Below, one piece after another: positions 38,475 through 63,753 of a DNA stretch of 64,000 nt. Source of the stretch: Candidatus Multivoradales bacterium (GTDB lineage: Bacteria; Acidobacteriota; Thermoanaerobaculia; Multivoradales; J023). Every line of letters begins with the position of its first letter. The first letter of the stretch is position 1. Position numbers and translations under genes: made by a program. The stretch lies in the NCBI GenBank assembly GCA_965248925.1, contig CBDFLE010000006.1:5154601-5218600 (forward strand), read 5' to 3'. Below the pieces are notes generated by a model. The model had not been told where the DNA came from and did no database searches. It saw only the letters and a program-made list of their open reading frames with translations.

Positions 38475-40667
38475 GTGAATAATTTCCAGCGCATCGCTGT
38501 GTTCTCCCTTGGCCTCTCAACGTTAGGTTTGCTCGGGCTGCTGCTGGCTTGCCAGGCGCCGCTCCCAGCCAAGACCGCTGCCGTGACCAAGGCGCCACTG
38601 GTAGATCCACCGAAGGCACCGGTGGCGGCCAAGAAACCCCAGGTCACCGAGTTGCATGGGGATCGCTTGGTGGACGACTACTCGTGGCTCCGCGAACGTG
38701 ACGATCCGGCCGTACTCGCTTACCTGGAGGCTGAGAAGATTTACACCCGGACGGTCACCTCGCACACAGCGGAGTTTCGCGATCAGCTCTATCATGAGCT
38801 TGCCGGGCGGCTGCAGGAGGAGGACTCCACGATGCCTTTTCCGCATGGAGACTATTTTTACTATTCACGCACCGAGAAGGGCAAGCCCTACGATATCTAC
38901 TGCCGTAAGAAGGGCTCTCTAGAGGCTCCGGAAGAACTCTTGTTGGACACGAATCTGGAGGCCGAAGACCACGAGTTCTACCGCAATGGCGATCTGGAAA
39001 TGAGTCCGGATCATCGATTGTTGGCCTATACGGAAGATACAGCGGGAACCGAATCCTACAGCTTGCGTGTGCGGCGGATCGCCGATGGGGTGGAATTAGC
39101 GGATCGTGTCGAAGGGCTGTCGGTCGGTCTGATCTGGGGCAACGACAGTAAGACGCTGTACTACACGGTGCTCAACGAGACCAGCCGCTCTTACAAAGTG
39201 TTCCGCCATATCTTGGGAACCCCGGCGGCGGCTGACGAAGAGCTATTCCACGAAGAGGATGCGGCTTTCAACGTTTGGATGTGGAAGGCTCGGAGTCAGC
39301 GCTACGTGATGTTGCTGTCGAGCAGCTCAACTACGGCAGAAATGCATTTGCTCGACGCCGACCAACCCGATAGTCAGTTCAACCTCTTCCAGGCCCGGCA
39401 GCCGCAGGTCCGCTATTCGTTGTATCACAACGAGGCTGGAATGTTCGTTCGTACCAACGAAGGCGGCGACCAGGGCTATCGTTTGATGTTGGCGCCCGCT
39501 GGCAATAGCGATCCCAACACTTGGAAGCGAATTATTGATCATCGCCAGCAGGTCAGGTTGGATACTATCGAGGAATTCAAGAATTTCTTGGTGATTACCG
39601 AACGAGTGGCCGGCCTGAAGAGGATGAGGGTGCTGGATACGACTACTTTCGAGAGTCAGTACATCGAGATGCCGGATTCTGTCTATGGTGTTTGGGCCGA
39701 ACAGAACGCTGAGTATGACACCGAGTTGTTCAGGTTCACCTACTCCTCGATGATAGCTCCGCAGTCGGTTTATGACTACGATATAAGTAGTCACCGCAGA
39801 GAGCTCAAGAAGGAGCAAAAAGTACCTGGATTCGACCGTTCCGAGTACCTCACTGAGCGGGTCTATGCACGGGCTGAAGACGGTGTTGCTATTCCCATTA
39901 GCTTAGCCTACAAGAAGGGGATTGAGAGAGACGGCAGTCACCCGATGCTGCTCTACGGCTATGGCTCTTATGGCGTCAATTTGTCGAACTTTTTCGATGC
40001 GGACCGATTCTCATTGCTCGATCGGGGTTGGGTCTATGCGATGGCTCATGTCCGTGGCGGCGGCGACCTTGGTGAGCAATGGCACCGCGATGGCAAGTTG
40101 CTTGACAAGCGCAACACCTTTACAGATTTTGTTGCCTCGGCAGAGCACCTGATAGCGCAGCGCTATACTTCCAGTGACCGCTTGGCGATCAACGGTGGTA
40201 GTGCTGGTGGGCTGTTGATCGGTGGAGTGCTCAATATGCGCCCGGATCTGTTCGCAGCCGCGGTCGCTGATGTCCCATTCGTTGATCTGATGAACACGAT
40301 GCTCGACGACTCCTTGCCGTTGACTGTCGGTGAGTACGAAGAGTGGGGAAATCCGCACGAGAAGCAAGCCTACTTCTATATGAAATCGTACTCGCCCTAT
40401 GACAACGTGACTGGCCAGGACTACCCTGCGTTATTGGTCAATGCCAGCTTCAACGACTCCCGGGTTCCCTATTGGGAAGCTGCGAAATGGGTCGCCAAGC
40501 TACGCGCGATGAAGACGGGCGATCAACAACTGTTGCTCAACATAAACATGGGAGCCGGCCACGGTGGTGCCTCGGGACGCTACGAGGAAGTCGAGGAGAT
40601 CGCTTTCGACTATGCCTTCCTGATCGACAACCTGCCAGCGGCGGGTGGATCGGCGGCGAGGCCGTGA
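38475..40667 (+). CDS. ptrB: Oligopeptidase B (S9A), predicted lipoprotein
   Basis: DDYSWLR, LLYGYGSYG, HVRGGG, catalytic GGSAGG, NDSRV and AGHGGASGRY. N-terminal hydrophobic stretch ends in an LLAC lipobox. Confidence 0.92.
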   Translation: MNNFQRIAVFSLGLSTLGLLGLLLACQAPLPAKTAAVTKAPLVDPPKAPVAAKKPQVTELHGDRLVDDYSWLRERDDPAVLAYLEAEKIYTRTVTSHTAEFRDQLYHELAGRLQEEDSTMPFPHGDYFYYSRTEKGKPYDIYCRKKGSLEAPEELLLDTNLEAEDHEFYRNGDLEMSPDHRLLAYTEDTAGTESYSLRVRRIADGVELADRVEGLSVGLIWGNDSKTLYYTVLNETSRSYKVFRHILGTPAAADEELFHEEDAAFNVWMWKARSQRYVMLLSSSSTTAEMHLLDADQPDSQFNLFQARQPQVRYSLYHNEAGMFVRTNEGGDQGYRLMLAPAGNSDPNTWKRIIDHRQQVRLDTIEEFKNFLVITERVAGLKRMRVLDTTTFESQYIEMPDSVYGVWAEQNAEYDTELFRFTYSSMIAPQSVYDYDISSHRRELKKEQKVPGFDRSEYLTERVYARAEDGVAIPISLAYKKGIERDGSHPMLLYGYGSYGVNLSNFFDADRFSLLDRGWVYAMAHVRGGGDLGEQWHRDGKLLDKRNTFTDFVASAEHLIAQRYTSSDRLAINGGSAGGLLIGGVLNMRPDLFAAAVADVPFVDLMNTMLDDSLPLTVGEYEEWGNPHEKQAYFYMKSYSPYDNVTGQDYPALLVNASFNDSRVPYWEAAKWVAKLRAMKTGDQQLLLNINMGAGHGGASGRYEEVEEIAFDYAFLIDNLPAAGGSAARP

Positions 40668-40699
40668 TCCGGCGCTGCTGTGCCTTGGGTGGGTGGAAG

Positions 40700-41145
40700 G
40701 GTATTGTCAACTTGTTCGGTCTCAGCGCCAGCCTGGCTGCGTAGCGTGCTGCGCAATGACCTCAACCGACGAAGTTCACTTGCTGCCAAACCCTGAACGA
40801 GCGAGGCCAAAGAAGCCGATAATTCGCTGCGTTGACCGTCTGATGACCGACTCGCAACAGACTCCCGACGACGCTACTAACTGAGAAGAAGCGCTGTGCT
40901 CCTCCGGGCGTCTTGAATTCCTCATCTGCCGGCCTCGACACTGCACGGATTCATGTGACTCCTCTGCCCGTTTGTTCGCCTAGCGGCTAGTATCGCGAGG
41001 AACCGTTGGCATATCGTCACGGTGAGCGCAGCCATGGCTCTTGAGCTTGTCGGTCACCAAGTGATTCGGCCCTTGGCCAAGTCCCTTCAGTAATTCACGG
41101 AAGAAGCGTCTCGCTGCACGGCTATCCCGACGAGATTAGACCAAG
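40700..41145 (-). pseudogene. IS6-family transposase 3' remnant with one terminal repeat
   Basis: Minus-strand translation LV*SRRDSRAARRFFRELLKG..LVTDKLKSHG...*ANKRAEESH...RQMR/FKTPGGAQRFFS matches the IS6 DDE C-terminal half, with stops and a frameshift. IS6-like end GGTATTGTCAACTTG at 40700-40714. Confidence 0.78.
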
Positions 41146-41399
41146 TGCTCAGTGACTATTAGATCTGTGAACCGTATTGCCTCACGGAATGATGTTACCC
41201 GAGGATAGATGTCGCCGCCGTGGTCGCCGAGCTGTGGGAATCGTATGACCTCGCCCTGCCACCTCTTGACAGCGGCCTCAGATTCGAAGAGCAAAGATCA
41301 GCTCGGTGCCGATCAATCTTCTGGGTGATCTGGCGGGGTGATAGTGCCGGGTTCTTCGAGGGGCGCCGAAAGCGGGTTGTGCGCCGCACCGGCGACTTG

Positions 41400-41818
41400 C
41401 AACCAGCTTCTTGTTGCCGTACTCCTCGACCCTGTTGACGACCCGCGTGTCCTCCCAGGCGTTCATGATGGTGCCTTCGATATATCGCGATTCGTCAGGG
41501 AAGACCTTGCGGAGATCCGGGAAAAAGGGGGCCGCTGAACGATTTCTCGGCGACGGTTGTGATGATGGTGTCGACTTAGAAGAGTTTCGCCGCCTTGGCG
41601 ATGCCGACGGTGTTGTTGCGCAGACTCTCGATCGGCTGTGAGCCGACGGCAAATGCCATCTGGCTCTCGTGGTCAATCAGGATGAGGGTGTGATCGTCGG
41701 GGTTGAGCAGCTGTGGCCCTGCCTGCTGGGGATTGTTGTGCGGGTTCTGGGCGACGGTCGGAGAGGTGGTCAGGCCGGCAAGGACGAGAATGGAAGCGAG
41801 ACGATGTAAGATCTTCAT
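41400..41818 (-). pseudogene. YcaC-like isochorismatase-family hydrolase, disrupted
   Basis: LILIDHESQMAFAV...LRNN...AKAAKLF* continues as VDTIITTVAEKSFSGP and, after a frameshift, MNAWED...KKLV. The 3' end is missing. Confidence 0.8.
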
Positions 41819-41870
41819 GGTTTATCTCCGGTCAGGTGTGACGTGTTTGGCGTTGATCGAGATGAACGTG

Positions 41871-42478
41871 TCAGTCAGTGACCACGGACAGCGGTTCATT
41901 CCAAGACTGTGAGAATACGAATTCGTGGAGCGGACGGCGGACACGGGGCCTGGTGTCCCTCTGTTGGTACTCGGTGTGACCCGTCTGCCCTCCGCGGTAA
42001 CCGATGGCTAAGGCGACGAAGGGGTCGAACCCTTCCGGGATGTCGAAAAACTTGCGGGCTTTCTCGGGGACGATGTCGATCATCTGGTGAACGGAAAGAC
42101 CGCGCCGGGTGGCTTCGAACGTCAGGTTGCGTTGGCAAGGCCCAGATCGTGCTCGGCCGCGGTGTTGGGATTGCCGTTGCGCTCGAATCGAAGGCTGACG
42201 ACGCCGAGAGCGAGGACCGGCGCGTGCTGTGCCCAGGCGCGGTTGCCGTCGAGCTAGCACTCCAGCAGGCGTTCGAAGGCGCTGGCGTTTCCGCGGGTGG
42301 CGACAAGATAGCGCCACGGCTGCTCGTTGTGAGACGAGGCCGCCCAGCGGGCCGCTTTGAAGAGGGCCAGCAGGTCTTCCGTGGCGACCGGGCGGTGGCT
42401 AGACACGTAGGGACTCCAGCGCTGGGCAACGAGCTCTTCGATCGGGTGGTCTGGGCGAGCTTCCTTGAGGTGTTGCAT
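41871..42478 (-). pseudogene. Nitroreductase family protein, disrupted
   Basis: QRWSP...AARWAASSHNEQPWRY, then a TAG, then GNRAWAQHAPVL..HDLGLA, then a frameshift to NLTFEATRRGLSVHQM...AIGY. Confidence 0.85.
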
Positions 42479-42491
42479 GGTTGGCGGTTCC

Positions 42492-42995
42492 TCAGCCGAG
42501 GTCGAAGAGGAGGATCTCGGCGCTCATTCGGCCGGCGATCTGAATGGCTTGCTGGTTAGAGATGGCGGCGCCATCCCCTTCGGCGAGGTTCCGGCCGTTG
42601 ACCGAGACCTCGCCACGGGCGACCTGGATCCAGATCTGCAGGAAATGCACCGGCTCCTCGAGCGACGGGTTCATTTCACTGTGGTGGATGCCGGTGCCGG
42701 CGGTCATCACCTGGACGTCGCCGCCGCTCAGGACAGATCCGTTGCCCATGCTGTCGCGGTGGGCCAGGGAGCCGTCGAGGACATAGGAGACGATCTCCAT
42801 GTCGCCGTGGGAGTGCTCACCAAAACCGGAACCCGGGTTGACGTGGTCGTCGTTGATCACTCGTAGGCAACGGAATCCCATCTGCTCCGGGTTGTGGTAG
42901 TCGGCGAAGGAGAAGGTGTGTCGTGAGTCGAGCCAGCCCAGGTCGGCGTGGCCCCGGTCGGTGGATTTGCGGATACGTATCATGGTGTTGCTCAT
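42492..42995 (-). pseudogene. Pirin/YhhW-family protein with an in-frame internal deletion
   Basis: RGHADLGWLDSRHTFSFADY, HSHGDMEI, HRDSMGN, MTAGTGIHHSE. LQIWI is fused directly to QVARG, so the middle is missing. Confidence 0.8.
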
Positions 42996-43031
42996 TTTCG
43001 TTTTCGCGTTCGCGGCGTCGCAAGAATAGTT

Positions 43032-43047
43032 AGCAATTCCTGTTCCA
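43032..43047 (-). promoter_or_regulatory. Sigma54 (-24/-12) promoter for the pirin-nitroreductase-ycaC operon
   Basis: Minus strand reads TGGAACAGGAATTGCT (GG-N10-GC), about 40 bp upstream of the pirin start and divergent from a sigma54 activator. Confidence 0.8.
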
Positions 43048-43134
43048 CCCGCACAAGTCCACCTAATATAATGATACTAAATAACTTACGCGAGAACATC
43101 GCGAAATCATGAGAGTCAGCTAGACTGTTCCATC

Positions 43135-43170
43135 TGTTGCAGCGCGCAACATTTGCGTTTCGTTGAAACG
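43135..43170. promoter_or_regulatory. Candidate enhancer (UAS) palindromes
   Basis: TGTTGC-n5-GCAACA (43135-43151) and CGTTTC-n3-GAAACG lie about 90-120 bp upstream of the sigma54 promoter, with an AT-rich stretch in between. Confidence 0.5.
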
Positions 43171-44857
43171 TTCCAGGGGGACTGCAGTGGTTCGAGCGAG
43201 CGAGATCAAGCTGTCAGAATTGCTCCAGTTCGAGCACGACGAAGGGCTCATCCACCTCAGGGACTACCGGATGGTGATGCTTTCCGCTTGTGCTCTCGGC
43301 GCGCTGCGCAAGGAGTTGATCGAGACCCTGGGCTGGGACCAGGCCCGGGGCCTGATGAAGCGCTTCGGCTACGCCGCCGGGGTGGCCGACGCGCTCTGCT
43401 TGGCACAGCGCTTTCCCGAGGCGAGCGGTATGTGGCACATGGACTTCGGACCTGAGCTCCATGCCCTCGAGGGCATGGCCAAGCTGGTCCGCATTCCCGA
43501 GTGGTCGCAGATCGACCTGGAGAAGGGCATCTTCCACGTCGAGGCCTACTGGGAGAATTCCTTCGAGGCCGAGCAGCAACTCGACATCCTAGGTCCCAGC
43601 TAGGAACCGATCTGCTGGATCCTCTCCGGCTATGCCTACGGACATTCCTCGACAGCCGCGGAACGGCCGACCGTGGTCGTCGAGACCGAATGCCGGGCGA
43701 TGGGTCATGAACGCTGCCGCTTCACCGCCACTCTGGCGGAATCAATGCCCGAGATGGTGCGTCGGGAAGAGTCGGACTACGCGCCGCATCACTTTCCGGA
43801 GGTCCTCGAGAACCTCTTATCGACCCTGAAAAAGCAGAAGCGAGCGCTGCGTTCGCGGGAAAGGACGATCGAGCGATTGCGTTCGGAGGTCGAGCGCATC
43901 CGTCCCCGAGGGAGCTTCATCTGCGACAGCCCGGCGCTGTCGCAGACCCTCGACACGGCCCAGGCAGTGGCGCCTTACACCACCACCGTTCTCATCCTGG
44001 GAGAGAGCGGCAGCGGCAAGGAGCTGATGGCCCGTTTCGTCCATGACCAGAGCCCGCGAGCCGGCAAGTCGTTCTCGGCGGTGAATTGCAGCGCCCTGTG
44101 TGAGAAAATTCAAGAGGCGGAGCTTTTCGGCTACGCCCGGGGGGCGTTTACAGGAGCGTCGATGGCGAATGCGGGCCTCTTCGAAGCAGCCCACGGCGGC
44201 ACTCTCTTTCTCGACGAGATCGGCGACCTGGCGTTGACCGCCCAAACCAAGATCCTTCGCGCCCTCCAGGAAGGTGAAGTCAAACGTCTCGGCGAGACCC
44301 GGGTCCGCAAGGTGGACACCCGCATCGTCGCCGCCACCAACCGTGATCTAGCGGCCATGGTGCGGGAGAAGACGTTCCGCGAGGATCTCTACTACCGGCT
44401 GAGCGTCGTCACGATCACCCTGCCGCCGCTCCGGGAACGGGCCAACGACGTCCTGTTGGTCGCCGAGCATTTTCTCGGGGTGTACGCAAAGCAATTTCAC
44501 AAGAATGTGCGGTCGTTCTCTCGAGCGGCCAGCTGCGCCCTCGTCGGTTATCCTTGGCCCGGCAACATCCGAGAGCTTGAGAACGTTGTCCAGCGGGCGG
44601 TCATCCTGGCCAAGGGGTGCCGGGTAGACGCCGCCGATCTGCCGGAGCACCTGGTCACCGGCAAGCCGGCCCCGAGCCTGGCACCAGCAGCGTCCACACC
44701 GCTCGATGCCGAGCGGGCAGAGCTACAAGAGATTGAAGACCAGGGCGCACGCCTGCGACGGGCGCTAGAACTAGCCGGTGGCAACCGTCAACAGGCGGCG
44801 GATCTCTTGGGGATCAGCCGGACGACCCTCTGGAGGCGTCTGAAGGCCGTCGAATAG
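43163..44857 (+). pseudogene. XylR/DmpR-type sigma54-dependent activator (XylR_N-V4R-AAA-HTH) with an in-frame TAG
   Basis: ORFs 43163-43603 and 43673-44857 share a frame, reading GPS*EPICWILSGYA. Contains GESGSGKE, GAFTGA, LFLDEIG, WPGNIRELEN and a Fis-type HTH. Confidence 0.88.
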
Positions 44858-44925
44858 GTACTTCCCACTAACAAACCATCGTTCCGTGAGGCAATACGGC
44901 GCACAGGTCTAATTGTCGCTGGGCA

Positions 44926-46730
44926 TCGACCTGTTGGCCGTCGCGCAGCAGCTCGACGAAAGCACTAGTGGGCTGATACTCGGCCGGCGCGATCTGGTAG
45001 CTCACCGCTACCGGCTCAGCTGCGAGGCCGTCGTCGTCGAGGGGCACGATAGGCGGCTCGAAGCTGGTGATCTGAGCTTGCACCCCCCACAGACTGCCGA
45101 TTTCTTGGTCGATGTTGGCGATCAGTCCGAGGGCAATGTCGAGCAGGCCGACGGCGAGGTAGTCCTCGGGGGTTTCGAGCACAGTGACTTCGCCATTGAA
45201 GTCGTCGAGGTAGGGACTCTTGGGCAGCACCGGTAGCAACACCCGAGCAGTGTGCAAGGCTGGGTCGAGGCCGGCTTGCAGCCGGCTCTCGAGGCGGCCG
45301 AGGAGGTTGTCGATCTGTGGCGGCGTGGTGGTGCCGGCGGGCAGCAGTTCAACCGCCAGCGGGTGAGTGTTGTCTTGGTAGAAATAGGCGGGTCGCCACT
45401 CGCCTCGTAGCTCGTTGCAGACCAGGAAGAACAGCGGTCCCCCCGGGCTGGGGTCGGCGATCCCTATCCCCTGGCACTCGGGCACCCATTCGAGGGCCTC
45501 GACTCCGACCGGTGGGTCGTAGACCTGGCCGGCTCGCACTGCCGAGCTGGGCTGGCCGGCGGCGTCGGCGAAGAACCCGAAAGTGCGCACGAAGCGCTGT
45601 GCCAGCGGCCCGCAGTGGTCGTGGTTGAGGCCCGTGTTGTTGATGAAGGAAATGCTGTACTCGTAAGACAGCGGTGGCAAGGCGGCTGAACTGACGGTTG
45701 CCGGGTAGCTGGTAATGGCGCTGGGGCCGGCGATGAAACCGGCCGAGACCTGACCCGAGGAGGTCGTTCTCAGGGTCAAATCGGAGCTGCCGCAATCGCC
45801 GAAACGGGGCGTAGTGACCGGGCAGCCGGTGAAGCCACCGGTGATCGAGTCGATTGAGGCGTCGAAGAAGGCACCTGGGGTGGGGTCCGGCGGAGCGTTG
45901 GTGCAGGTGATGCCAGGGGCGACGAAGACGGTGTTGGTGAAAGCCACGTCTTGATTGGCCACTGGGTTGCCGTGCGGATCCTCGACGGCGATCGCCAGGG
46001 TGTCTTGCCACAGGCCGTGCAGCACGGTGAGGTCGGTGCCCTGGTTGTCGTCGCGGTTGGTGCGGCGCAGAGCCGCCGGATCCTGGGGGAAGGCGACCGA
46101 GGAAATCGGCTGGCGCAGCACCAGATTGCCGAGTCTGGAGCTGGCCACCGCCTCGACCACGTTCTCCAGCACTCGGGTTTGGAAGATGTCGCTGTCGAAG
46201 CGACGAAGGAAGAGGGGGTTAGCCGCGGTGTGCTTTCCTGAACGTAACTTGACGCGGGCCATTCCACGGGCGTCGGTGCGTAGGGTGAGGCTGGTGGATT
46301 CTTGGTTCTGGGTGTCGAGCAGCCGGCCGTCGCCAGCCCAGATGTAGAAGGTGACTTCGGTGCCCTGGACCGGTCGGCCGGCCGCGTCGAGCACGCGCAC
46401 CGCCAGAGGGTGACGATAGACCCTGTCGACGGTGCCGAGCTGGCTGTCAGTACCCTCGGCGACGAGTAGCTCGACGCCAGCGAGAGGATCGGTGTTGGGG
46501 GAGTCTGACATGGGCGCGGCCAGGGCATCGGCGAGGAAGCCCAGCAGCCAGTTCTCAGGCGCCTCGACGGTGGCGCCACCGGCCAGGCCGCCGGAGAGGA
46601 AGTAGCCGGCCGTGCCGCTCTCTGGATCTTCGGCTCGCCATGTCGAGCCGGTCCAGGCACTGACGGAGATCGGCTGGCGGGGGATCTCGACCGTCAGCCC
46701 TTGGGCGATGAGGGCGACCACGTCGTCACG
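44926..46730 (-). repeat. Near-identical copy of an internal segment (54359-56163) of the giant Rhs gene; non-functional fragment
   Basis: Constant offset of 9433 with only a handful of substitutions. Bounded by an IS21-type end and a truncated XRE gene. Confidence 0.95.
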
Positions 46731-46734
46731 GCCA

Positions 46735-46925
46735 GGGTGTATCGGGTGACTAACTGATGGAAGGGGCCAACGAAGATGCGGCAAGAGCCTACTTCGAAGA
46801 CCGCGAGATACTACGCCAATTTCAGGAAGTCGAAGGGCTGCCCGAGAAGGACAAGTTCGTTGTCAAGAAGCTCCTCGACGCATTTCTTACCAAGAAGCAG
46901 ATTCAGAGGCTGGCTGTTAGGAAGC
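46735..46925 (+). pseudogene. 5'-truncated XRE-family regulator (copy 1)
   Basis: Only MEGANED...KKLLDAFLTKKQIQRL remains; the HTH is lost at the junction with the Rhs fragment. Confidence 0.8.
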
Positions 46926-47450
46926 TGGAGTCAGCAGGTAGTCTGCTGGCACCCAGGCTGCCAACCAAACTAGTTCGTTGCCTTTGTAGAAGACAACGCC
47001 CGCCGCTTGCGCTTCTGCCGCCCCGACCTCCAGGATTACCGCGTTGCGGGCTTTTCGGTGGCCTACCTGGTTGGCCGTTTCTCGGTCAGCCGAGAGGTGG
47101 ACGTACTGCCGGCCCATCGGCTTGAGACCTTCAACCAAAATCACTTCAGCCGTCTTGGGTGACGTGCCATGGTAGAGCACGGCCGGTGGAGTCGCTGGCA
47201 GCTTCAGCAGGCGTTGCGGCGTCGAATGACCGTAGAGCGCTCGAATCCGTCCGTCGTGCAGCTCGAAGCGCTGTTTGTCTGCAGCCGCCATCACTCGCAC
47301 GATGTCTTGTCCGGACAGCCACCGCCATTCTCGGCGCTGGCTACGCAGCGCCGAGAACAACATCTCTACGTCGACCCAGCCCTCTTCGTCCAGCTCCAGC
47401 TCGTAGAGCCACGGTTCGTGGCGAAGGGCGTGGGAAATTGTGCGGCTCAG
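46735..47450. repeat. Diverged copy of 63035-63750 (3' part of the XRE gene plus kptA)
   Basis: Collinear at offset 16300 with many substitutions. Confidence 0.92.
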
Positions 47451-47528
47451 CCGGAGCCGTTCTTCCCCTTTGGATGGAGCCGCTCTTCCCAATCGATGGG
47501 CCTTAACCTTCTGATTCACTCCAGGCAA
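46917..47528 (-). CDS. kptA: RNA 2'-phosphotransferase (KptA/Tpt1), copy 1
   Basis: SHALRHEP, DEEGWV, DKQRFE, IRALYGHS, LYHGT, GLKPMGRQYVHLS, VGHRK, VWLA. Start codon uncertain. Confidence 0.92.
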   Translation of the reverse strand: MPGVNQKVKAHRLGRAAPSKGEERLRLSRTISHALRHEPWLYELELDEEGWVDVEMLFSALRSQRREWRWLSGQDIVRVMAAADKQRFELHDGRIRALYGHSTPQRLLKLPATPPAVLYHGTSPKTAEVILVEGLKPMGRQYVHLSADRETANQVGHRKARNAVILEVGAAEAQAAGVVFYKGNELVWLAAWVPADYLLTPAS

Positions 47529-53800: not shown

Positions 53801-56800
53801 TCGAAAAGGTCGACACCGTGGACCAAGGTATGGCCGATGGGCAGTATTTCGGAGATGTCCCAGGCGGAACTCAGCCGGGCCTCGCGGACCTCCTCGTAGC
53901 CATCCACCGCGTCGATGCCGCGCAGCTCGATCAGGTAGTCGCCGGGGGGCAGGTCGGTGGGGCTGATCGGCTCGCCGTGCTCGCCGTCGGCAAACATCTC
54001 GGCTTCGATCAGGGTGATGGCGGCGGCGGTGTTGAGGCTGCCGTCGGTCTCGACGCTCTCGATCCGGCGGGCGATCAGGGTGACCTCGGCCGGGCGGTTG
54101 AGCTCAAAGCTGAAGAGGGTCGGCTGGGCGCAGCGTCGCTGGTTGAGCAGGTCGACATCCTGGCGCACCGCCAAGGCGCGGCTGTAGTCGGCGAAGAGCT
54201 GCTGCCCTAGGGGCACCGGCACGGGGTCGCCGCGTACTTCGATCGGAGTGTCGAGATTGAGCACCAGCTCGGCCTGCCACAGACCGTCGAGGCCCAGCTC
54301 AAGGCCGCGGGGCAGCTCGGCGAGACCTTCTCCAGCGATGCTCTGGCCGCGCAAGAGGTCGACCTGTTGGCCGTCGCGCAGCAGCTCGACGAAAGCACTA
54401 GTGGGCTGATACTCGGCCGGCGCGATCTGGTAGCTCACCGCGACCGGCTCAGCTGCGAGGCCGTCGTCGTCGAGGGGCACGACAGGCGGTTCGAAGCTGG
54501 TGATCTGAGCTTGCACCCCCCACAGACTGCCGATTTCTTGGTCGATGTTGGCGATCAGTCCGAGGGCAATGTCGAGCAGGCCGACGGCGAGGTAGTCCTC
54601 GGGGGTTTCGAGCACAGTGACTTCGCCATTGAAGTCGTCGAGGTAGGGACTCTTGGGCAGCACCGGTAGCAACACCCGAGCAGTGTGCAAGGCTGGGTCG
54701 AGGCCGGCTTGCAGCCGGCTCTCGAGGCGGCCGAGGAGGTTGTCGATCTGTGGCGGCGTGGTGGTGCCGGCGGGCAGCAGTTCAACCGCCAGCGGGTGAG
54801 TGTTGTCTTGGTAGAAATAGGCGGGTCGCCACTCGCCTCGTAGCTCGTTGCAGACCAGGAAGAACAGCGGTCCCCCTGGGCTGGGGTCGGCGATCCCTAT
54901 CCCCTGGCACTCGGGCACCCATTCGAGGGCCTCGAGTCCGACCGGTGGGTCGTAGACCTGGCCGGCTCGCACTGCCGAGCTGGGCTGGCCGGCGGCGTCG
55001 GCGAAGAACCCGAAAGTGCGCACGAAGCGCTGTGCCAGCGGCCCGCAGTGGTCGTGGTTGAGGCCCGTGTTGTTGATGAAGGAAATGCTGTACTCGTAAG
55101 ACAGCGGTGGCAAGGCGGCTGAACTGACGGTTGCCGGGTAGCTGGTAATGGCGCTGGGGCCGGCGATGAAACCGGCCGAGACCTGACCCGAGGAGGTCGT
55201 TCTCAGGGTCAAATCGGAGCTGCCGCAATCGCCGAAACGGGGCGTAGTGACCGGGCAGCCGGTGAAGCCACCGGTGATCGAGTCGATTGAGGCGTCGAAG
55301 AAGGCACCTGGGGTGGGGTCCGGCGGAGCGTTGGTGCAGGTGATGCCAGGGGCGACGAAGACGGTGTTGGTGAAAGCCACGTCTTGATTGGCCACTGGGT
55401 TGCCGTGCGGATCCTCGACGGCGATCGCCAGGGTGTCTTGCCACAGGCCGTGCAGCACGGTGAGGTCGGTGCCCTGGTTGTCGTCGCGGTTGGTGCGGCG
55501 CAGAGCCGCCGGATCCTGGGGGAAGGCGACCGAGGAAATCGGCTGGCGCAGCACCAGATTGCCGAGTCTGGAGCTGGCCACCGCCTCGACCACGTTCTCC
55601 AGCACTCGGGTTTGGAAGATGTCGCTGTCGAAGCGACGAAGGAAGAGGGGGTTAGCCGCGGTGTGCTTTCCTGAACGTAACTTGACGCGGGCCATTCCAC
55701 GGGCGTCGCTGCGTAGGGTGAGGCTGGTGGATTCTTGGTTCTGGGTGTCGAGCAGCCGGCCGTCGCCAGCCCAGATGTAGAAGGTGACTTCGGTGCCCTG
55801 GACCGGTCGGCCGGCCGCGTCGAGCACGCGCACCGCCAGAGGGTGACGATAGACCCTGTCGACGGTGCCGAGCTGGCTGTCAGTACCCTCGGCGACGAGT
55901 AGCTCGACGCCAGCGAGAGGATCGGTGTTGGGGGAGTCTGACATGGGCGCGGCCAGGGCATCGGCGAGGAAGCCCAGCAGCCAGTTCTCAGGCGCCTCGA
56001 CGGTGGCGCCACCGGCCAGGCCGCCGGAGAGGAAGTAGCCGGCCGTGCCGCTCTCTGGATCTTCGGCTCGCCATGTCGAGCCGGTCCAGGCACTGACGGA
56101 GATCGGCTGGCGGGGGATCTCGACCGTCAGCCCTTGGGCGATGAGGGCGACCACGTCGTCACGCACGGTTTGAGGGTGGTTCAGGCTGGGCAGCTCGGCG
56201 GTCAGATTGCCAGCGTCGAGGCGTAGCACCTCGATGCCCGAGTCGCGGGCCAGGGCCAGGCCCCTGTCGGCCGAGATTGCCGCGACCTGGAATTGTCCTT
56301 CGAAAATCGCCTGCTCCAGCGCCGAGCCTTCGAGCGCCGCCAGGCGCATCCAGTCGGCGGCGGTTTCGGTGGAGCCGTCACGAGCTGCGGGTTCAGCGAC
56401 GCGCAGCGCGGCGTCGAGGGTGACGCCTTCCCAGATCAACCGCTGCGGCACTCCCAGCAGTAATTCGGCGCGCAAGGAGTTGCTGGCGATGACCAGCGCC
56501 GGCAGCGGCCGTGCCGGGCTCACGGCTAAGAGGCCGCCAATCTCGGTCTCAGCGGCGTCCCAATCGGCACCATAGCTGTAGGCGAGGCCGCTCAGCAGGC
56601 GGGCGGCGAGCTGCTCGCCGTCGCCTGGGTCGTTGTCCGCCAGCTCGGTGGCCTGGAAGTGCTGACCGCCCACAGCGATGGCGTGATAGGCGCCTGATAG
56701 GACGATCTGGCTGATCTCTTGGCTGCCAAACGGCCCTTCGACTACTGCTTCGAAACGATGCAGCTTGGCGGCGTCCACCGGCTCGCCGACGGCGATGCGG

Positions 56801-59407: not shown

Positions 59408-60147
59408 GTGATCCGGCTCAAGGCGTTGCAGCCCTCCGATGGCTGTCGAGCCATCGCAGCCGCCTTCAATCGCAACTACCGCCATCGCCGGATGACGGTC
59501 GGCAAGAGCTATGTTGCGAAGATCTTCAAAGAGCACCAGCTGGAGATCCTCGCTTGGCGTCAGAAGATCCGCAGGAGGAAACCTGGGACGGTCGACAAGC
59601 GGCTGATCTGGGCCGCCGATCTCACCTATGCCGACAACGCCGCCGGGCAGAAAGAGACCATCTTCGGCTTGCTCGATCACGGGACTCGGCTTTGCTTGCG
59701 CCTTCAGACTTTGAAGACGAAGGCGTCGGTCGAGCTGGTGCGCCAGCTGCTCGACGCGATTGAGCTAGGTGGTAAGCCAAAGTGCCTGCGCACCGACAAC
59801 GAGCCGGTCTTCACCTCGTGGATCTTCAGGCTTTCGCTTCTTCTGCTCGGCATTCGCCACCAGCGCACTCAGGTGGCCTCGCCCTGGCAGAACGGCCGCA
59901 TCGAGCGCTTCTTCGGCACCTTCAAAGAGCGTCTGCTGCGGCGGCGCGAGCCGCTGCCGCAGGGCCGCAAGGCCCAGCGGCAGCTCTGGATGTCTTCCGC
60001 TATTGGTACAACGATCTTCGCCCGCACCAGAGCCTCGACGGCTGTACGCCGGGCGAGATCTGGACCAGTCGCTGGCGCCCGCGAGGGCAGCTACGATTCT
60101 TGACCGCCTGGCAAGGAGTGCTCTCTGGCTTCTACGCGCCCAAGTAG
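59408..60147 (+). pseudogene. rve/integrase-core (IS3/IS481-like) transposase with a frameshift
   Basis: WAADLT, DHGTR, LRTDNEPVF and PWQNGRIERFFGTFKE in one frame; FRYWYNDLRPHQSLDGCTP in another. Confidence 0.8.
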
Positions 60148-60507
60148 AGCGGCTCGGGACGGCGAAGGAAGGGCAGACGGCAGCACGCTGTCCATGGTGA
60201 GCTGCGTCCGGGACACAAGGATTCTAGGCAACCAGAGGAAATCGAGATCCGTCGAGGACGGTTCTCTGAGTGAGTTGAGAATTGTCAGTACGGCGCTGGC
60301 CCTGACGTCAACTACTTTTGTGCATCAGCGACAATTAGAAATGTGCAAACCCGCCGCCGCCGTAGCCGCTGGGCTGTGGGAAACGCGCAGCGTTTTCCAA
60401 GGGGTGTGGGAGGGTGCCGTCTGCGGCAGCCTTCCATGCCCCGGCAGACCGGCGGCTGGGGGGAGTTGGGGGTCCGGGGGAAGAGGGGGGGTTGGTTTTC
60501 CACAGGT

Positions 60508-61275
60508 TCAGGATTTCCTCCGTAAGTTGTTGTTGTTCTTGACGGCCACCTGGGCGCGGTAACTCTTGCCTGAAAGCTCCAGGATGGTGGCGTGATGGAC
60601 GAGTCGATCGATGGCGCATGCAGTGGTCATGGGGTCCTTGAAGGTCTTGTCCCACTCGGAGAAAACCAGGTTCGAGGTGATCATCACGCTCTTGCGCTCG
60701 TAGCGCTCGGAGAGGAAAGTGAAGAGCACCTCCATCTCTTCGCGGCTATGTTGGACGTAGCCGATATCGTAGAGGATGACGACCTCGAAGCGATCGAGTC
60801 GCTTGAGTACGATCTCTAGCTCGAGATCGCGTTTGGCGACCAGCAAGCGCTGGACGAGCTTGAAGGCCGGCAGGAAGAGCACGGAGACGCCTCGCTGGAC
60901 GAGTTCATATCCAATGGCGCTGACCAGGTGCGTCTTGCCACGACCGGGCAGACCGAAGGCGAGCAGGTTCTCGCACCGCTCTGCGAAACCGCCCTCGCTC
61001 AGGTTGGGCAGTTGCCGGCGAACCGCGACCGGCAGTCGGGCGCGATCGAGAGTCGCTAGGGTTTTCTCGTGCGGCAGACCGGAGCTGCGAAGCAGCCGTT
61101 CGACGCGGCGCCGACGGCGGTCTTCGATCTCCACTTCGGCGAGCTGACGGAGAAAGCGTTCGAAGCTCCAGCCTTCTTGCTCGGCCTTGGTACTCACCTC
61201 TGCGAGAGCGCTCACGAAGCTGGGCAACTTCAAGGTGCGAAGCAAGCCGGGGAGACTGTCGTTGGTGACGCTCAC
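60508..61275 (-). CDS. istB: IS21 helper ATPase
   Basis: GLPGRGKTHL, ERYERKSVMITSNL.FSEW, AIDRLVHHA, GKSYR. Walker B reads LYDIGY. Confidence 0.93.
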   Translation of the reverse strand: MSVTNDSLPGLLRTLKLPSFVSALAEVSTKAEQEGWSFERFLRQLAEVEIEDRRRRRVERLLRSSGLPHEKTLATLDRARLPVAVRRQLPNLSEGGFAERCENLLAFGLPGRGKTHLVSAIGYELVQRGVSVLFLPAFKLVQRLLVAKRDLELEIVLKRLDRFEVVILYDIGYVQHSREEMEVLFTFLSERYERKSVMITSNLVFSEWDKTFKDPMTTACAIDRLVHHATILELSGKSYRAQVAVKNNNNLRRKS

Positions 61276-62756
61276 TGGACCACCTCCACGCTGCTGGTGA
61301 GCAGTTGGTCATAGCTGGCGAGATCGGCCACCGGGGGTTCCATGTTGGGAATCTGAGGAGTTGCGAGCCGGGTCAGCGCTTCAACCGCCTCGAAACGGGG
61401 TAGCTTCCGCTCGGCCTCGATCAACTCCAGCGCCGCCTCGACCTCGCACTGCATGGTGGTCGCGGCCAGCTTCAGGATCCGCAGATAGTCCAGGTCGGCC
61501 TGGCGCTGCGAGAGGCCCTCGCTCAGGATGTCATAGGCCCTTCGGAAGACCAGGGTAGGGAACATCGCATCGCGGAACCGGTAGCGTGCGAACGCGCCCG
61601 GCTTGCGCACCAAGGATGCGATCACATGCCGGTAGTCGACCCGATGCTTGCCGTGGCCACACAGGCGCTCGATACTGAGCTGCTTGCGGCCACCGTAGAG
61701 CACCTCCAAGGTCATCTCGCGCAGCAGCACCACCACCTGCTCGCCGATCAGTCGCGACGGCACCGAGTAGGTGTTGTTCTTCACCCGAATGGTGCTGCAC
61801 GAGCTCACCCGGAGACGCAGCCTACGGTGCTGCGGGAGCCGATCGGCTTGTAGCAGCCGCATGACCGCAAGTTCCTCGCGCAAGCGCTTCGCGCGCCGCG
61901 CATTGGCCTGCTCCAGCCGCTCGCTGATCCACGCTTGGTAGAGCTCGACGCTGTCGAAGTCCCGGCTGCCACGGAGCAGAAGATGCTGCTTCAGCTGCCG
62001 CTTCAGCGCCCCGTTGGCCGCCTCGATGTCGCCGTTCTGGTGGCTCTGGCCGATGCCGATCGTCCGCGGCTTCATCCCCAAATGCTCCATCACCGAGACG
62101 TACTCGTCATTGAAACCTCGCTGCCCGGTCTTGAGGTCATGGGTCGCTGCCGTCGAGTTGTCCGTCTGGTGGTACCGGGGCACCCGGCCCAGCCGGAAAA
62201 CGGCGGTCTGGACTCCCTGGCGAATCGCCAGCATCGACTCGGAAAAGCACACCGTCGCCGACTGCCAGTTGCTGTACGGCAGCACCGAGTGGCACAGCAG
62301 GTGAAGGAACACCTCGCCACCGATCCTCACCCCCAGCTTCTTGCAGCAGGTGAAGTCGGTCTGCAACGCCTCACCAGGCCGGTGGTTTTGGCCGAAGAAC
62401 ACCTCCTTCTCTGGACCCTCAGTAGCCCGCCACTGCTTCACATGGCGCTGAAAGGTGCGCAGCTGCCCCTGGTGATAGCGGTCGGGATGGCGGGCCATCA
62501 GATCCTCGAAAAGCGCCTTGCCCTCCAGCTCGGGAGCCGACTCCAGGCGGGCGGTGATCGCCGGCCAATCGGCCGCGAAAGGGTCCTTGCGGGTACGCCA
62601 CCGGCGCTCCGCTTTCAACTCCGACGGCAGACCACCAGCCGCCACATACCGGCGCGCCGTGTTGCGGTGCATGCCGGCTCGTAGAGAGGCCACGCCGATA
62701 CCGGCGCCTTGCTTCAGCTCGCTCATCAGTTTCCTCACTTGTGCGTCTGTAACCAC
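61272..62756 (-). CDS. istA: IS21 transposase
   Basis: HRNTARRY HTH, PGEALQTDFT, HQTDN, NGDIE, NNTYSVPSRLIG. Likely GTG start at 62756 after GAGGAG. Confidence 0.93.
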   Translation of the reverse strand: MVTDAQVRKLMSELKQGAGIGVASLRAGMHRNTARRYVAAGGLPSELKAERRWRTRKDPFAADWPAITARLESAPELEGKALFEDLMARHPDRYHQGQLRTFQRHVKQWRATEGPEKEVFFGQNHRPGEALQTDFTCCKKLGVRIGGEVFLHLLCHSVLPYSNWQSATVCFSESMLAIRQGVQTAVFRLGRVPRYHQTDNSTAATHDLKTGQRGFNDEYVSVMEHLGMKPRTIGIGQSHQNGDIEAANGALKRQLKQHLLLRGSRDFDSVELYQAWISERLEQANARRAKRLREELAVMRLLQADRLPQHRRLRLRVSSCSTIRVKNNTYSVPSRLIGEQVVVLLREMTLEVLYGGRKQLSIERLCGHGKHRVDYRHVIASLVRKPGAFARYRFRDAMFPTLVFRRAYDILSEGLSQRQADLDYLRILKLAATTMQCEVEAALELIEAERKLPRFEAVEALTRLATPQIPNMEPPVADLASYDQLLTSSVEVVQ

Positions 62757-62788
62757 GCCCGCTCCTCGGTCGAGTAAACGAGCATTTT

Positions 62789-62828
62789 CCCGCCTCTTGG
62801 GGGTCGCTAGCGACCCCCAAGAGGCGGG
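62789..62828. repeat. Perfect 40-bp palindrome between the IS21 end and the istA start
   Basis: CCCGCCTCTTGGGGGTCGCT|AGCGACCCCCAAGAGGCGGG. Confidence 0.9.
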
Positions 62829-62884
62829 ACTCGGATGCACAGGAGTAATTGTCGTCAGTGCACAGGTCTAATTGTCGCTGAGCA

Positions 62885-63224
62885 CGATCGCCTCCGACAA
62901 CTACGGAAGCAGAGGAATCTGTCTCAAACCGAACTCGGGAAACTCGTGGACCTGCACTACACCCATGTTGGCCGCTACGAGCGTGGGGCTTCTCGGCCTA
63001 CCGCGGATGCACTCGGGCGCATCGGCGAAGCGCTGGGTGTATCGGGTGACTACCTGATGGAAGGGGCCAACGAAGATGCGGCAAGAGCCCACTTCGAGGA
63101 CCGCGAGCTACTACGCCAATTTCAGGAAGTCGAAGGGCTGCCCGAGGAGGACAAGTTCGTCGTCAAGAAGCTCCTCGACGCATTCCTGACCAAGAAGCAG
63201 ATTCAGAGGCTGGCTGCTAGGTAG
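62885..63224 (+). pseudogene. XRE-family HTH regulator (copy 2) with its first codons removed by the IS21 end
   Basis: DRLRQLRKQRNLSQTELG...GRYERGASRP...LGVSGDYL begins immediately after the IS21 terminal CA. Confidence 0.82.
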
Positions 63225-63753
63225 CTGGAGTCAGCACGTAGGCTGCTGGCACCCAGTCTGCCAGCCAAACCAGGCCGTTGCCTTGGTAGAAGACAACGCC
63301 CGCGGCATGCGCTTCTGCCGCCCCGACCTCCAGGATTACCGCGTTGCGGGCCTTTCGGTGGCCCACCTGGTTGGCCGTTTCCCGGTCGGCCGAGAGGTGG
63401 ACGTACTGTCGACCCATCGGCTTGAGACCTTCGGCCAAGATCACTTCAGCCGTCTTGGGTGCCGTGCCGTGGTAGAGCACCGCCGGTGGAGTTGCCGGCA
63501 CCTTCAGTAGGCGTTGCGGCGTCGAATGACCGTAGAGCGCTCGAATCCGTCCGCTGCGCAACTCGAAGCGTTGTTTGTCGGCAGCTGCCATCACTTGCTC
63601 GATGTCTTGCTCGGACAGCCGACGCCATTCCCGGCGCTGGCTTCGTAATCCCGACAACAGTGTCTCGATCTCCACCCAGCCCTCTTCGTCCAGCTCCAGC
63701 TCGTATAGCCACGGCTCGTGGCGCAGAGCGTGCGAGATTGTGCGGCTTAGTCG
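63217..63753 (-). CDS. kptA: RNA 2'-phosphotransferase (KptA/Tpt1), copy 2; no canonical start before the conserved N-terminus
   Basis: The frame upstream of the listed ORF reads RLSRTISHALRHEPWLYELELDEEGWV. All KptA motifs are present. Confidence 0.85.
   Translation of the reverse strand, partial: RLSRTISHALRHEPWLYELELDEEGWVEIETLLSGLRSQRREWRRLSEQDIEQVMAAADKQRFELRSGRIRALYGHSTPQRLLKVPATPPAVLYHGTAPKTAEVILAEGLKPMGRQYVHLSADRETANQVGHRKARNAVILEVGAAEAHAAGVVFYQGNGLVWLADWVPAAYVLTPAT

Follow-up and report, generated by a model that had tools for sequence, protein, structure and literature searches.

Two right-hand insertion sequence ends around a broken sigma-54 regulon unit in a Multivoradales genome: a possible fossil of a transposase-less cassette

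Do genes that lie between inverted insertion sequence (IS) ends, with no transposase among them, form a mobile cassette, or have the ends come to stand there by independent decay? This question is raised by positions 41146–44925 of a 64,000-nt stretch of DNA, the window, taken from contig CBDFLE010000006.1 (C6 below; positions 5,154,601–5,218,600 of the forward strand, assembly GCA_965248925.1) of Candidatus Multivoradales bacterium. An earlier note on this segment proposed a transposase-free transposon with hybrid IS21-like ends of about 50 bp, which would be mobilised in trans by IstA/IstB of a co-resident IS21 or would represent a second element nested in IS21 ends, and which would serve for gene capture. 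As described here, the segment, called the element below, is a captured regulatory unit enclosed by two right-hand ends of a different, single-transposase IS type, and there is about an even chance that it is the fossil of a non-autonomous, transposase-less cassette of the kind known as mobile insertion cassettes (MICs).

The bracketing by inverted repeats is confirmed. The arms (41146–41194 and 44877–44925) are 49 nt long and 86% complementary (42/49 positions), with 3682 nt between them, and a repeat search finds this pair as the single outstanding inverted repeat in 40000–46000. Their termini, TGCTCAG... and ...CTGGGCA, give the element the form 5′-TG...CA-3′. The composite nature of the arms has also held up: an outer 20-mer has four sites in the window, namely both arms and both ends of the IS21 copy, and a base-by-base count of the outer 26 nt against the istA-proximal IS21 end gives 22/26 identities for the left arm and 24/26 for the right, whereas the inner 24 nt, common to the two arms at 22/24 positions, agree with the same IS21 end only at chance level (6/24 and 5/24, respectively). 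The inner 18-mer CCGTATTGCCTCACGGAA has exactly two matches in the window, inverted, with 0.02 expected by chance, and no further match in the 7.98-Mb genome beyond the two arms. Short-read contigs (4 runs of one sample, which may be the source sample and are not independent biology) span 40900–44955 with zero differences; hence, neither the junctions nor the lesions in the genes (see below) are assembly errors.

These ends are not peculiar to the locus. As judged by sequence comparison, the ~50-nt end is the normal terminus of a distinct IS type with a single transposase, which bears the label “ISNCY family” in records of the Prokaryotic Genome Annotation Pipeline (PGAP). Such ISs are about 1.75 kb long and encode one DDE (rve-type) transposase of ~500–590 aa with an ISLbi1/IS481-like core, and each of their ends begins with TG, followed by an IS21-type outer box (CAGCGACAATTAGA) and then by an inner box (CGTATTGCCTCA...GATGTTAC). 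The arms share this layout, with TG at the terminus, an outer box of the GCGACAAT type, and the inner CGYRTTGCCTCA...TGYTMC box; the element differs in lacking the transposase gene, a left-type end, and a second inner box, and in holding 3.6 kb of unrelated genes instead. The copy on plasmid 2 of Aromatoleum aromaticum EbN1 (L019 4975–6721) is 1747 bp long, with inverted repeats of 37 nt at 86% and a single 528-aa DDE protein, and its ends (TG-GGGCGCGACAATC...CGTGTTGCCTCACGGAAGGATGTTAC) show the outer box, the inner box, and the spacing found in the arms. Inverted repeats of the same build (39 nt) enclose an rve-type transposase in a 1824-bp element of a Hyphomicrobiaceae metagenome-assembled genome (L010). 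Thus, what the earlier note saw as a hybrid end, an IS21-type repeat joined to a different inner box, was seen correctly, but a whole IS family ends in this way as a rule.

This IS type is widespread. A tblastn search with the transposase gave matches in 352 plasmid records, and in 150 of these the match spans at least 80% of the query; further complete plasmid copies come from Cupriavidus, Rhizobium, Bradyrhizobium, Novosphingobium, Marinobacter, and Sinorhizobium (including L021–L025). With the L010 end as a blast query, 102 plasmid records were matched, mostly from rhizobia, while the left arm gave partial matches to its inner part only, one of which led to the copy on EbN1 plasmid 2. A scan for exact CCGTATTGCCTCACGGAA in one genome per species returned 8 loci, of which L010 alone extends, to 28 nt; two of the other 7 are identical, and these 7 look like chance matches. 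A metagenome scan with a 23-nt pattern returned one locus, the solo end L017. In the order to which the window's genome belongs, transposase matches at E ≤ 1e-20 occur in 9 of 151 genomes; in the window's own family, copies were found in G004, G010, and G011 (left end only partly found); besides these, G016 has a split copy, and G008 and G141 hold fragments. The inner box is present at every recognisable end, and the outer box is clear in most, being degenerate at both G004 ends, at the left end of G016, and at the left end of the Rhizobium copy L021. A second inner box lies ~35 nt further in at most left ends and at several right ends of complete copies.

The family name used here rests on the PGAP record labels, which are “ISNCY family transposase” for some of the homologous transposases and “DDE-type integrase/transposase/recombinase” for others. 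The EbN1 transposase is 33% identical to ISLbi1 over residues 1–384, reaches the cutoff of no NCBIfam model (IS481, 39.4 versus 224; IS21, 33.3 versus 160), and scores 30.5 bits with Pfam rve, for which the cutoff is 32.6. At the level of titles and abstracts, no paper on ISLbi1 and ISNCY, or on IstA together with ISNCY, was found that describes the end architecture or the domain shared with IstA discussed below. The two-box signature, together with the left/right diagnostic base described in the next paragraph, offers a simple means of recognising the ends of this widespread but poorly named and classified IS type. The same comparison disposes of the suggestion that a separate CCG-ended element is nested within a pair of IS21 ends. 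Its appeal lies in the impression alone that the outer and inner halves differ in affinity; however, the two boxes are contiguous, with the same spacing, in every complete copy examined (from Alpha-, Beta-, and Gammaproteobacteria and from the window's own family), and the inner box is never a terminus in these copies, so the suggestion can hardly be right.

Both arms are right-hand ends of an ISNCY-type IS. At the third base of the inner box, 13/13 ends classed as left have C (12 lying upstream of the transposase gene, and L018 assigned by likeness only), and 13/13 ends classed as right have T (12 lying downstream of the gene, and the solo end L017, whose side is unknown); this base is T in both arms, where the inner box reads CGTATTGCCTCACGGAATGATGTTAC on the left and CGTATTGCCTCACGGAACGATG on the right. 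Over the inner 26 nt, the left arm is identical to right ends at 18–25 positions versus 11–16 to left ends, and the right arm at 16–23 versus 10–14. The assignment follows from the diagnostic base, from these ranges, which do not overlap, and from the homology of the left arm to a right end over 74 nt. This homology (73–74 nt, 41145/41146–41218) is longer than the ~50 nt of the repeat itself and retains, on the minus strand, the last ~7 codons of a transposase gene (...AATSILG-stop, compared with ...TTTTILG at the C-terminus of the G004 transposase). In the right arm, homology to the G010 right end covers 38 nt, and the TGYTMC tail of the inner box is absent. Terminal TG, outer IS21-type box, and first inner box are retained in each arm; in the left arm, the conserved GCGACAAT core of the outer box bears two substitutions and has become GTGACTAT. 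The element thus lacks the natural pair of one left and one right end.

Why an ISNCY-type end should carry an IS21-type box becomes clearer from the transposases. Residues 425–493 of the EbN1 protein (encoded within L019 5023–6609; homologues L026–L028) are 45% identical to residues 76–144 of the IstA encoded in the window (E 5e-15), and the C-terminal domain of the copies from the same family is 49–53% identical to IstA 79–138. By its position in the NCBIfam IS21 profile (41–109), the shared region maps to the second helix-turn-helix (HTH-2) of IstA. Part of the published account of the IS5376 IstA structure describes two HTH domains that read two conserved GC-rich segments in each terminal repeat (PMC10122671). 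An IS21-family element on a Janthinobacterium plasmid has two terminal GCGACAATTAGA repeats, which are near-identical to the outer box of the G010 right end. The outer box would be common to the two families because the C-terminal domain of the ISNCY-type transposase resembles IstA HTH-2; the family and IS21 appear to share a DNA-binding module together with its site, which looks like a module exchange between IS families. The inner and outer boxes are, accordingly to this scheme, the putative binding sites of the N-terminal DNA-binding part and of the C-terminal HTH of the transposase, respectively. This would be a concrete case of such an exchange, in which cross-recognition becomes testable.

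It is a larger step to suppose that these ends have dual specificity, the outer box for an IstA-like HTH-2 module and the inner box for the family's own N-terminal domain, and that the cassette is a two-right-end vehicle movable by the IstA/IstB of the neighbouring IS21; this is quite improbable; if it were true, elements of one family could be mobilised by the transposase of the other. The element does resemble an IS21 in having, at a TG terminus, a terminal repeat of the CAGCGAC...TGTGC layout, and differs from it in having no istA/istB inside, one IS21-type repeat per arm, and inner 24 nt that are unrelated. Duplications of 4–8 bp are usual for the IS21 family, and the element has no target-site duplication (TSD).

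The related view that the cassette is still competent and is mobilised in trans by IstA/IstB through its outer 26-nt boxes may draw on the 22/26 and 24/26 agreement of these boxes with the IS21 repeat at the TG terminus, on intact istA and istB genes 16 kb away, on the fact that the IS21's own istB-distal end also shows one recognisable repeat core, and on the HTH-2-like domain that ISNCY-type transposases have in common with IstA. Yet the GAC[AT]ATTA core occurs once per arm versus twice at the istA-proximal IS21 end, and two complete direct repeats per end are needed for in vitro integration by IS5376 IstA, as stated in part of the same structural report (PMC10122671). In addition, the left arm has the two core substitutions, there is no TSD, the element is a single copy, and its cargo is dead. 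The short-read contigs contain neither a joint that skips the element nor a circle junction, although such contigs drop rare forms and do not address rare excision; the small joints seen at 44226–44554 are low-depth pieces of sigma-54 ATPase genes of other organisms. Since the outer box is a family-wide trait of ISNCY-type ends, an involvement of IS21 is unneeded, and a still-mobile cassette of this sort is very doubtful.

The cargo between the arms is a captured sigma-54 regulon unit, which comprises a XylR-type activator, a sigma-54 promoter, and genes of the pirin, nitroreductase, and isochorismatase families (Table 1). The unit was earlier described as a self-contained regulator plus operon; a regulator with a divergent operon is indeed present, but all four genes are broken. 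The activator is interrupted by a single in-frame TAG (43601–43603), and an alignment of the tblastn type, continued across this stop, keeps one frame with the 615-aa homologue from G019 (574 aa aligned, 68.6%). The strict sigma-54 pattern TGGC-N8-TGC has no match in the intergenic region, and the promoter is a one-mismatch match judged by eye. In the pirin gene, ~66 codons have been deleted (residues 129–194 of the G019 homologue), so that most of the C-terminal cupin domain is gone; the Pirin_C_2 profile is matched at positions 40–86 here versus 1–86 in the homologue. The nitroreductase gene has an in-frame stop (42254–42256) and a frameshift near 42125, and its N-terminal piece still scores 32.6 bits with PF00881 (cutoff 23.5). 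The isochorismatase-family gene has an in-frame stop and a frameshift near 41530. The similarity of the latter to the 263-aa G004 homologue ends at residue 155, and because nothing similar follows, its 3′ part was apparently lost before the junction at 41219.

No transposase was found within the element, in agreement with the earlier observation: tblastn of three transposases with a short word size gives a best E of 0.12, which is noise, Pfam finds regulator and enzyme domains only, and with IstA or IstB as the tblastn query, the genome has no match within C6:5195746–5199525, where the element lies. Homologues of the cargo occur in another genus of the same family as regulator–pirin and regulator–isochorismatase pairs at 70–73% nucleotide identity, and no IS ends of the arm type are found near them within the fetched flanks. 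The whole element is in no searched relative; all 41 genomes match, nearly all via the conserved ATPase domain. The GC profile reveals no contrast between the cargo and its surroundings.

Table 1. Position of the element's parts, its flanks, and the co-resident IS21 copy in the window
Feature	Position	Strand	Remarks
Left arm	41146..41218	+	Right-hand end of ISNCY-type IS, TG terminus inward; 84% over 74 nt to G010 right end
Isochorismatase-family hydrolase pseudogene	41362..41830	-	tblastn of G004 homologue (PF00857 96.9 bits)
Nitroreductase pseudogene	41871..42523	-	Stop-to-stop frames
Pirin gene with internal in-frame deletion	42492..42995	-	Two high-scoring segment pairs in one frame
Sigma-54-type promoter, TGGAAC-N5-TTGCT	43032..43047	-	~40 nt upstream of pirin ATG; divergent from activator
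XylR/DmpR-type sigma-54 activator (XylR_N, V4R remnant, AAA+, Fis HTH)	43163..44857	+	Pfam
Right arm	44877..44925	-	Right-hand-type end, terminus 44925; homology ends ~49 nt in
Left flank: IS6-family transposase relic, N-terminal part missing	40762..41145	-	Ends exactly at arm terminus
Right flank: partial copy of N-terminal Ig-like region of RHS-repeat protein gene	44926..46730	-	Ends exactly at arm terminus
IS21-family copy, intact, co-resident	60321..62884 (approx.)	-	istA 61272-62840, istB 60508-61275

How, then, did two right ends come to enclose these genes? Only the outermost 49–73 nt of either IS end are left, and the two remnants are inverted relative to each other. The fossil of a MIC-like, non-autonomous cassette is favoured because exactly the terminal recognition modules remain, inverted, around foreign DNA; the retention of the termini alone would be expected under selection for mobility and would rarely be left by the random decay of two ISs. 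The cargo also lies in a non-native context, with unrelated relics in both outer flanks and its closest homologues in another genus, where such ends are missing. Such a unit would have moved only with the cognate transposase supplied in trans, which now survives here as a fragment; afterwards, the cargo would have decayed until all four genes were broken, the left arm would have mutated in its most conserved box, and rearrangements nearby may have erased any TSD. Both the former movement of the pair as a unit and the mode of its formation are inferred, and the fossil cassette as a whole is an evenly balanced proposition.

Several observations weigh against it. No TSD is found at the borders (...ACCAAG/TGCTCAG on the left and CTGGGCA/TCGACC... 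on the right, the slash marking the border), and duplications of 5–6 bp are present in 4 of the 7 ISNCY-type copies with recognisable termini (6 bp in L022, L023, and L024; 5 bp in L025). The outer flanks are different genes and not two halves of one target, which excludes a simple insertion of the unit at its present site. An internal deletion of one IS cannot yield two right ends, so that either two IS copies or the duplication of an end must be assumed. The arms mismatch at 7 of the 49 positions, and the second inner box is absent from both of them, where a pattern search finds the first boxes only. The isochorismatase gene looks as if it had been cut at the left junction, like an illegitimate deletion. 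The element is present in a single copy in its genome. Outside it, no inverted right–right pair was found among 300 genomes of the order, in which a right-end pattern matched 11 genomes and its reversed control none; the end pairs on five rhizobial plasmids are complete ISs, a 1.2-kb deletion derivative, and an IS interrupted by an IS21, with solo ends besides, but none bears cargo; and the exact-match scans of genomes and metagenomes returned normal IS ends or solo ends only, with no cargo-bearing pair.

A simpler explanation than the fossil cassette for why both ends are right-hand ones, why no TSD is present, and why the flanks are unrelated is that the arms are solo ends of separate origin and were never part of one unit. 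Two ISNCY-type ISs would have inserted, one into an IS6 and the other into an Rhs fragment, with their right ends outward, and their bodies, left ends, and adjacent DNA would then have been deleted, so that the “cargo” would be local DNA. In this case, no extra steps are required for the lack of a TSD and for unrelated flanks cut exactly at the termini; the two right-type arms, their unequal lengths (73 versus ~49 nt), their seven differences, and the apparent 3′ loss of the isochorismatase gene at the junction are explained as well; and the region is a patchwork of relics in any case (an IS6 fragment, the Rhs duplicate, an IS481/IS3-like fragment, and an IS21). On the other side, two coincidental deletions are needed, each of which spared the outermost 49–73 nt of a 1.75-kb IS, and these remnants had to be left inverted around a complete regulator-plus-operon unit. 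The cargo, moreover, has no native neighbours on either side: the best match of the S9 peptidase gene, its left neighbour, lies on a contig other than that of the cargo homologues in 4 g5 genomes, the assemblies of which are fragmented. The origin of the arms as two solo ends is possible and has to be taken seriously, with rather less than an even chance of being correct.

If the fossil cassette is the right reading, its nearest known counterparts are the MICs, which are defined in the literature by passenger genes, the lack of a transposase, and flanking repeats related to those of an IS (PMC4337579). In these features, the element is like MIC231 of Bacillus cereus and the TnXax1-type cassettes of Xanthomonas. 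The Xanthomonas cassettes have 5-bp TSDs, many copies, and varied cargo, whereas here there are one copy, no TSD, two right ends, no intact cognate transposase in the genome, and cargo that is dead. No sign that the unit has transposed, such as a TSD, several copies, or several contexts, was found, and a cognate transposase that could act in trans is represented by a fragment only, in an assembly that is 96.9% complete. Thus, the element falls within the definition of a MIC, every test of mobility applied to it gave a negative answer, and it is probably dead. The layout can also be compared with a composite transposon, in that two ends of the same type face outward around chromosomal genes as if two inverted ISs once flanked the cargo; the difference is that both IS bodies are gone, which leaves only 73 and ~49 nt of the outer ends.

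With all its cargo broken, no TSD, unrelated flanks, a single copy, and no intact cognate transposase, the locus does not bear out the proposed role of a gene-capture vehicle, and as such a vehicle it has little importance, being a single dead copy of a kind already described. The earlier note had named the observations that would speak against its proposal: repeats that occur only here and belong each to a separate truncated IS, with no other cargo-bearing pair. This is largely what has been found, as the repeats have no other site in this genome, both arms are right IS ends that have been truncated, and the collections searched yielded no other pair with cargo. More generally, genes enclosed by inverted IS ends should be called a mobile cassette only if a TSD, further copies, or intact cargo can be shown as well.

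The sole remnant of a cognate transposase in this genome (C6:1089327–1090007) covers residues 176–390 and is 86.5% identical to the G011 copy; no intact gene is present in the assembly, and a copy in the unassembled DNA is possible. The remnant, at C6:1088754–1090007 (L031 928–2181), forms one open frame, in which a low-complexity repeat with GKGARHIIG-like units takes the place of the N-terminal part. Neither blastn-short nor pattern searches found another copy of the arms with an inner box in the genome. An IS21 relic at C5:490990 is without the inner box, and a 29-nt relic (TGCCCACAGCGACAATTAGACCTGCGCGCC) at C6:1175713–1175736 is like the outer box of the right arm, including GCGCC before the inner box, with no inner box or IS gene nearby.

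An abundant 2901-bp IS was considered as the source of the arms and rejected, as its ends (TGCCTGCACCGACGG...) are unrelated. This IS21-family element (e.g., C6:2504015–2506915) has 27 near-full-length matches at 99.3–100%, its IstB is ~30% identical to that of the window, and one copy sits inside a second copy of the window's IS21 (C6:5029990–5032891).

Derivatives of the ISNCY-type IS are known from rhizobial plasmids, and none of those found carries non-IS cargo. One is an internal-deletion derivative of 1.2 kb (L018 5001–6274); in another, on a Bradyrhizobium guangxiense plasmid (L039), an IS21-family element has split the copy. Bradyrhizobium plasmids also offered a candidate cargo cassette, a 4.0-kb end pair, which was rejected because it contains IS21-family istA/istB and is a nested insertion.

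The flanks of the element are, as previously noted, a cut IS6 and a cut Rhs fragment. The IS6-type assignment is below threshold (NF033587, 28.4 bits with a cutoff of 125; PF13610, 24.5 bits with a cutoff of 27), and this relic has no second copy in the genome. The right flank consists of 1805 bp of the gene for a neighbouring 3543-aa RHS-repeat protein, is 99.3–99.7% identical to five other copies, and its homology begins exactly at 44926. Loose ends at this position in the short-read contigs are the uninterrupted RHS paralogues.

The co-resident IS21 copy, 16 kb from the element, scores 180.8 bits with NF033546 (cutoff 160) and 244.2 with NF038214 (cutoff 200), and has two repeat cores at its istA-proximal end and one recognisable core at its istB-distal end. 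Directly beside it lies a transposase fragment of the IS481/IS3-like type (59408–60103; NF033577, 75.9 bits with a cutoff of 224).

The 1805-bp RHS segment (44926–46730 and 54359–56163 in the window) has six genome copies at 99.3–99.7% and a seventh at 84%. The short-read depth rises 3- to 7-fold from 44932 onward, and the contigs break there. Downstream of the Rhs fragment, the stretch 46735–47453 is 90% identical to 63035–63753, which lies just beyond the IS21 and close to where the contig stops; 46735–47453 also matches the terminal part of contig C5 at 88% identity. Repeated Rhs-associated modules are the probable cause of these assembly breaks.

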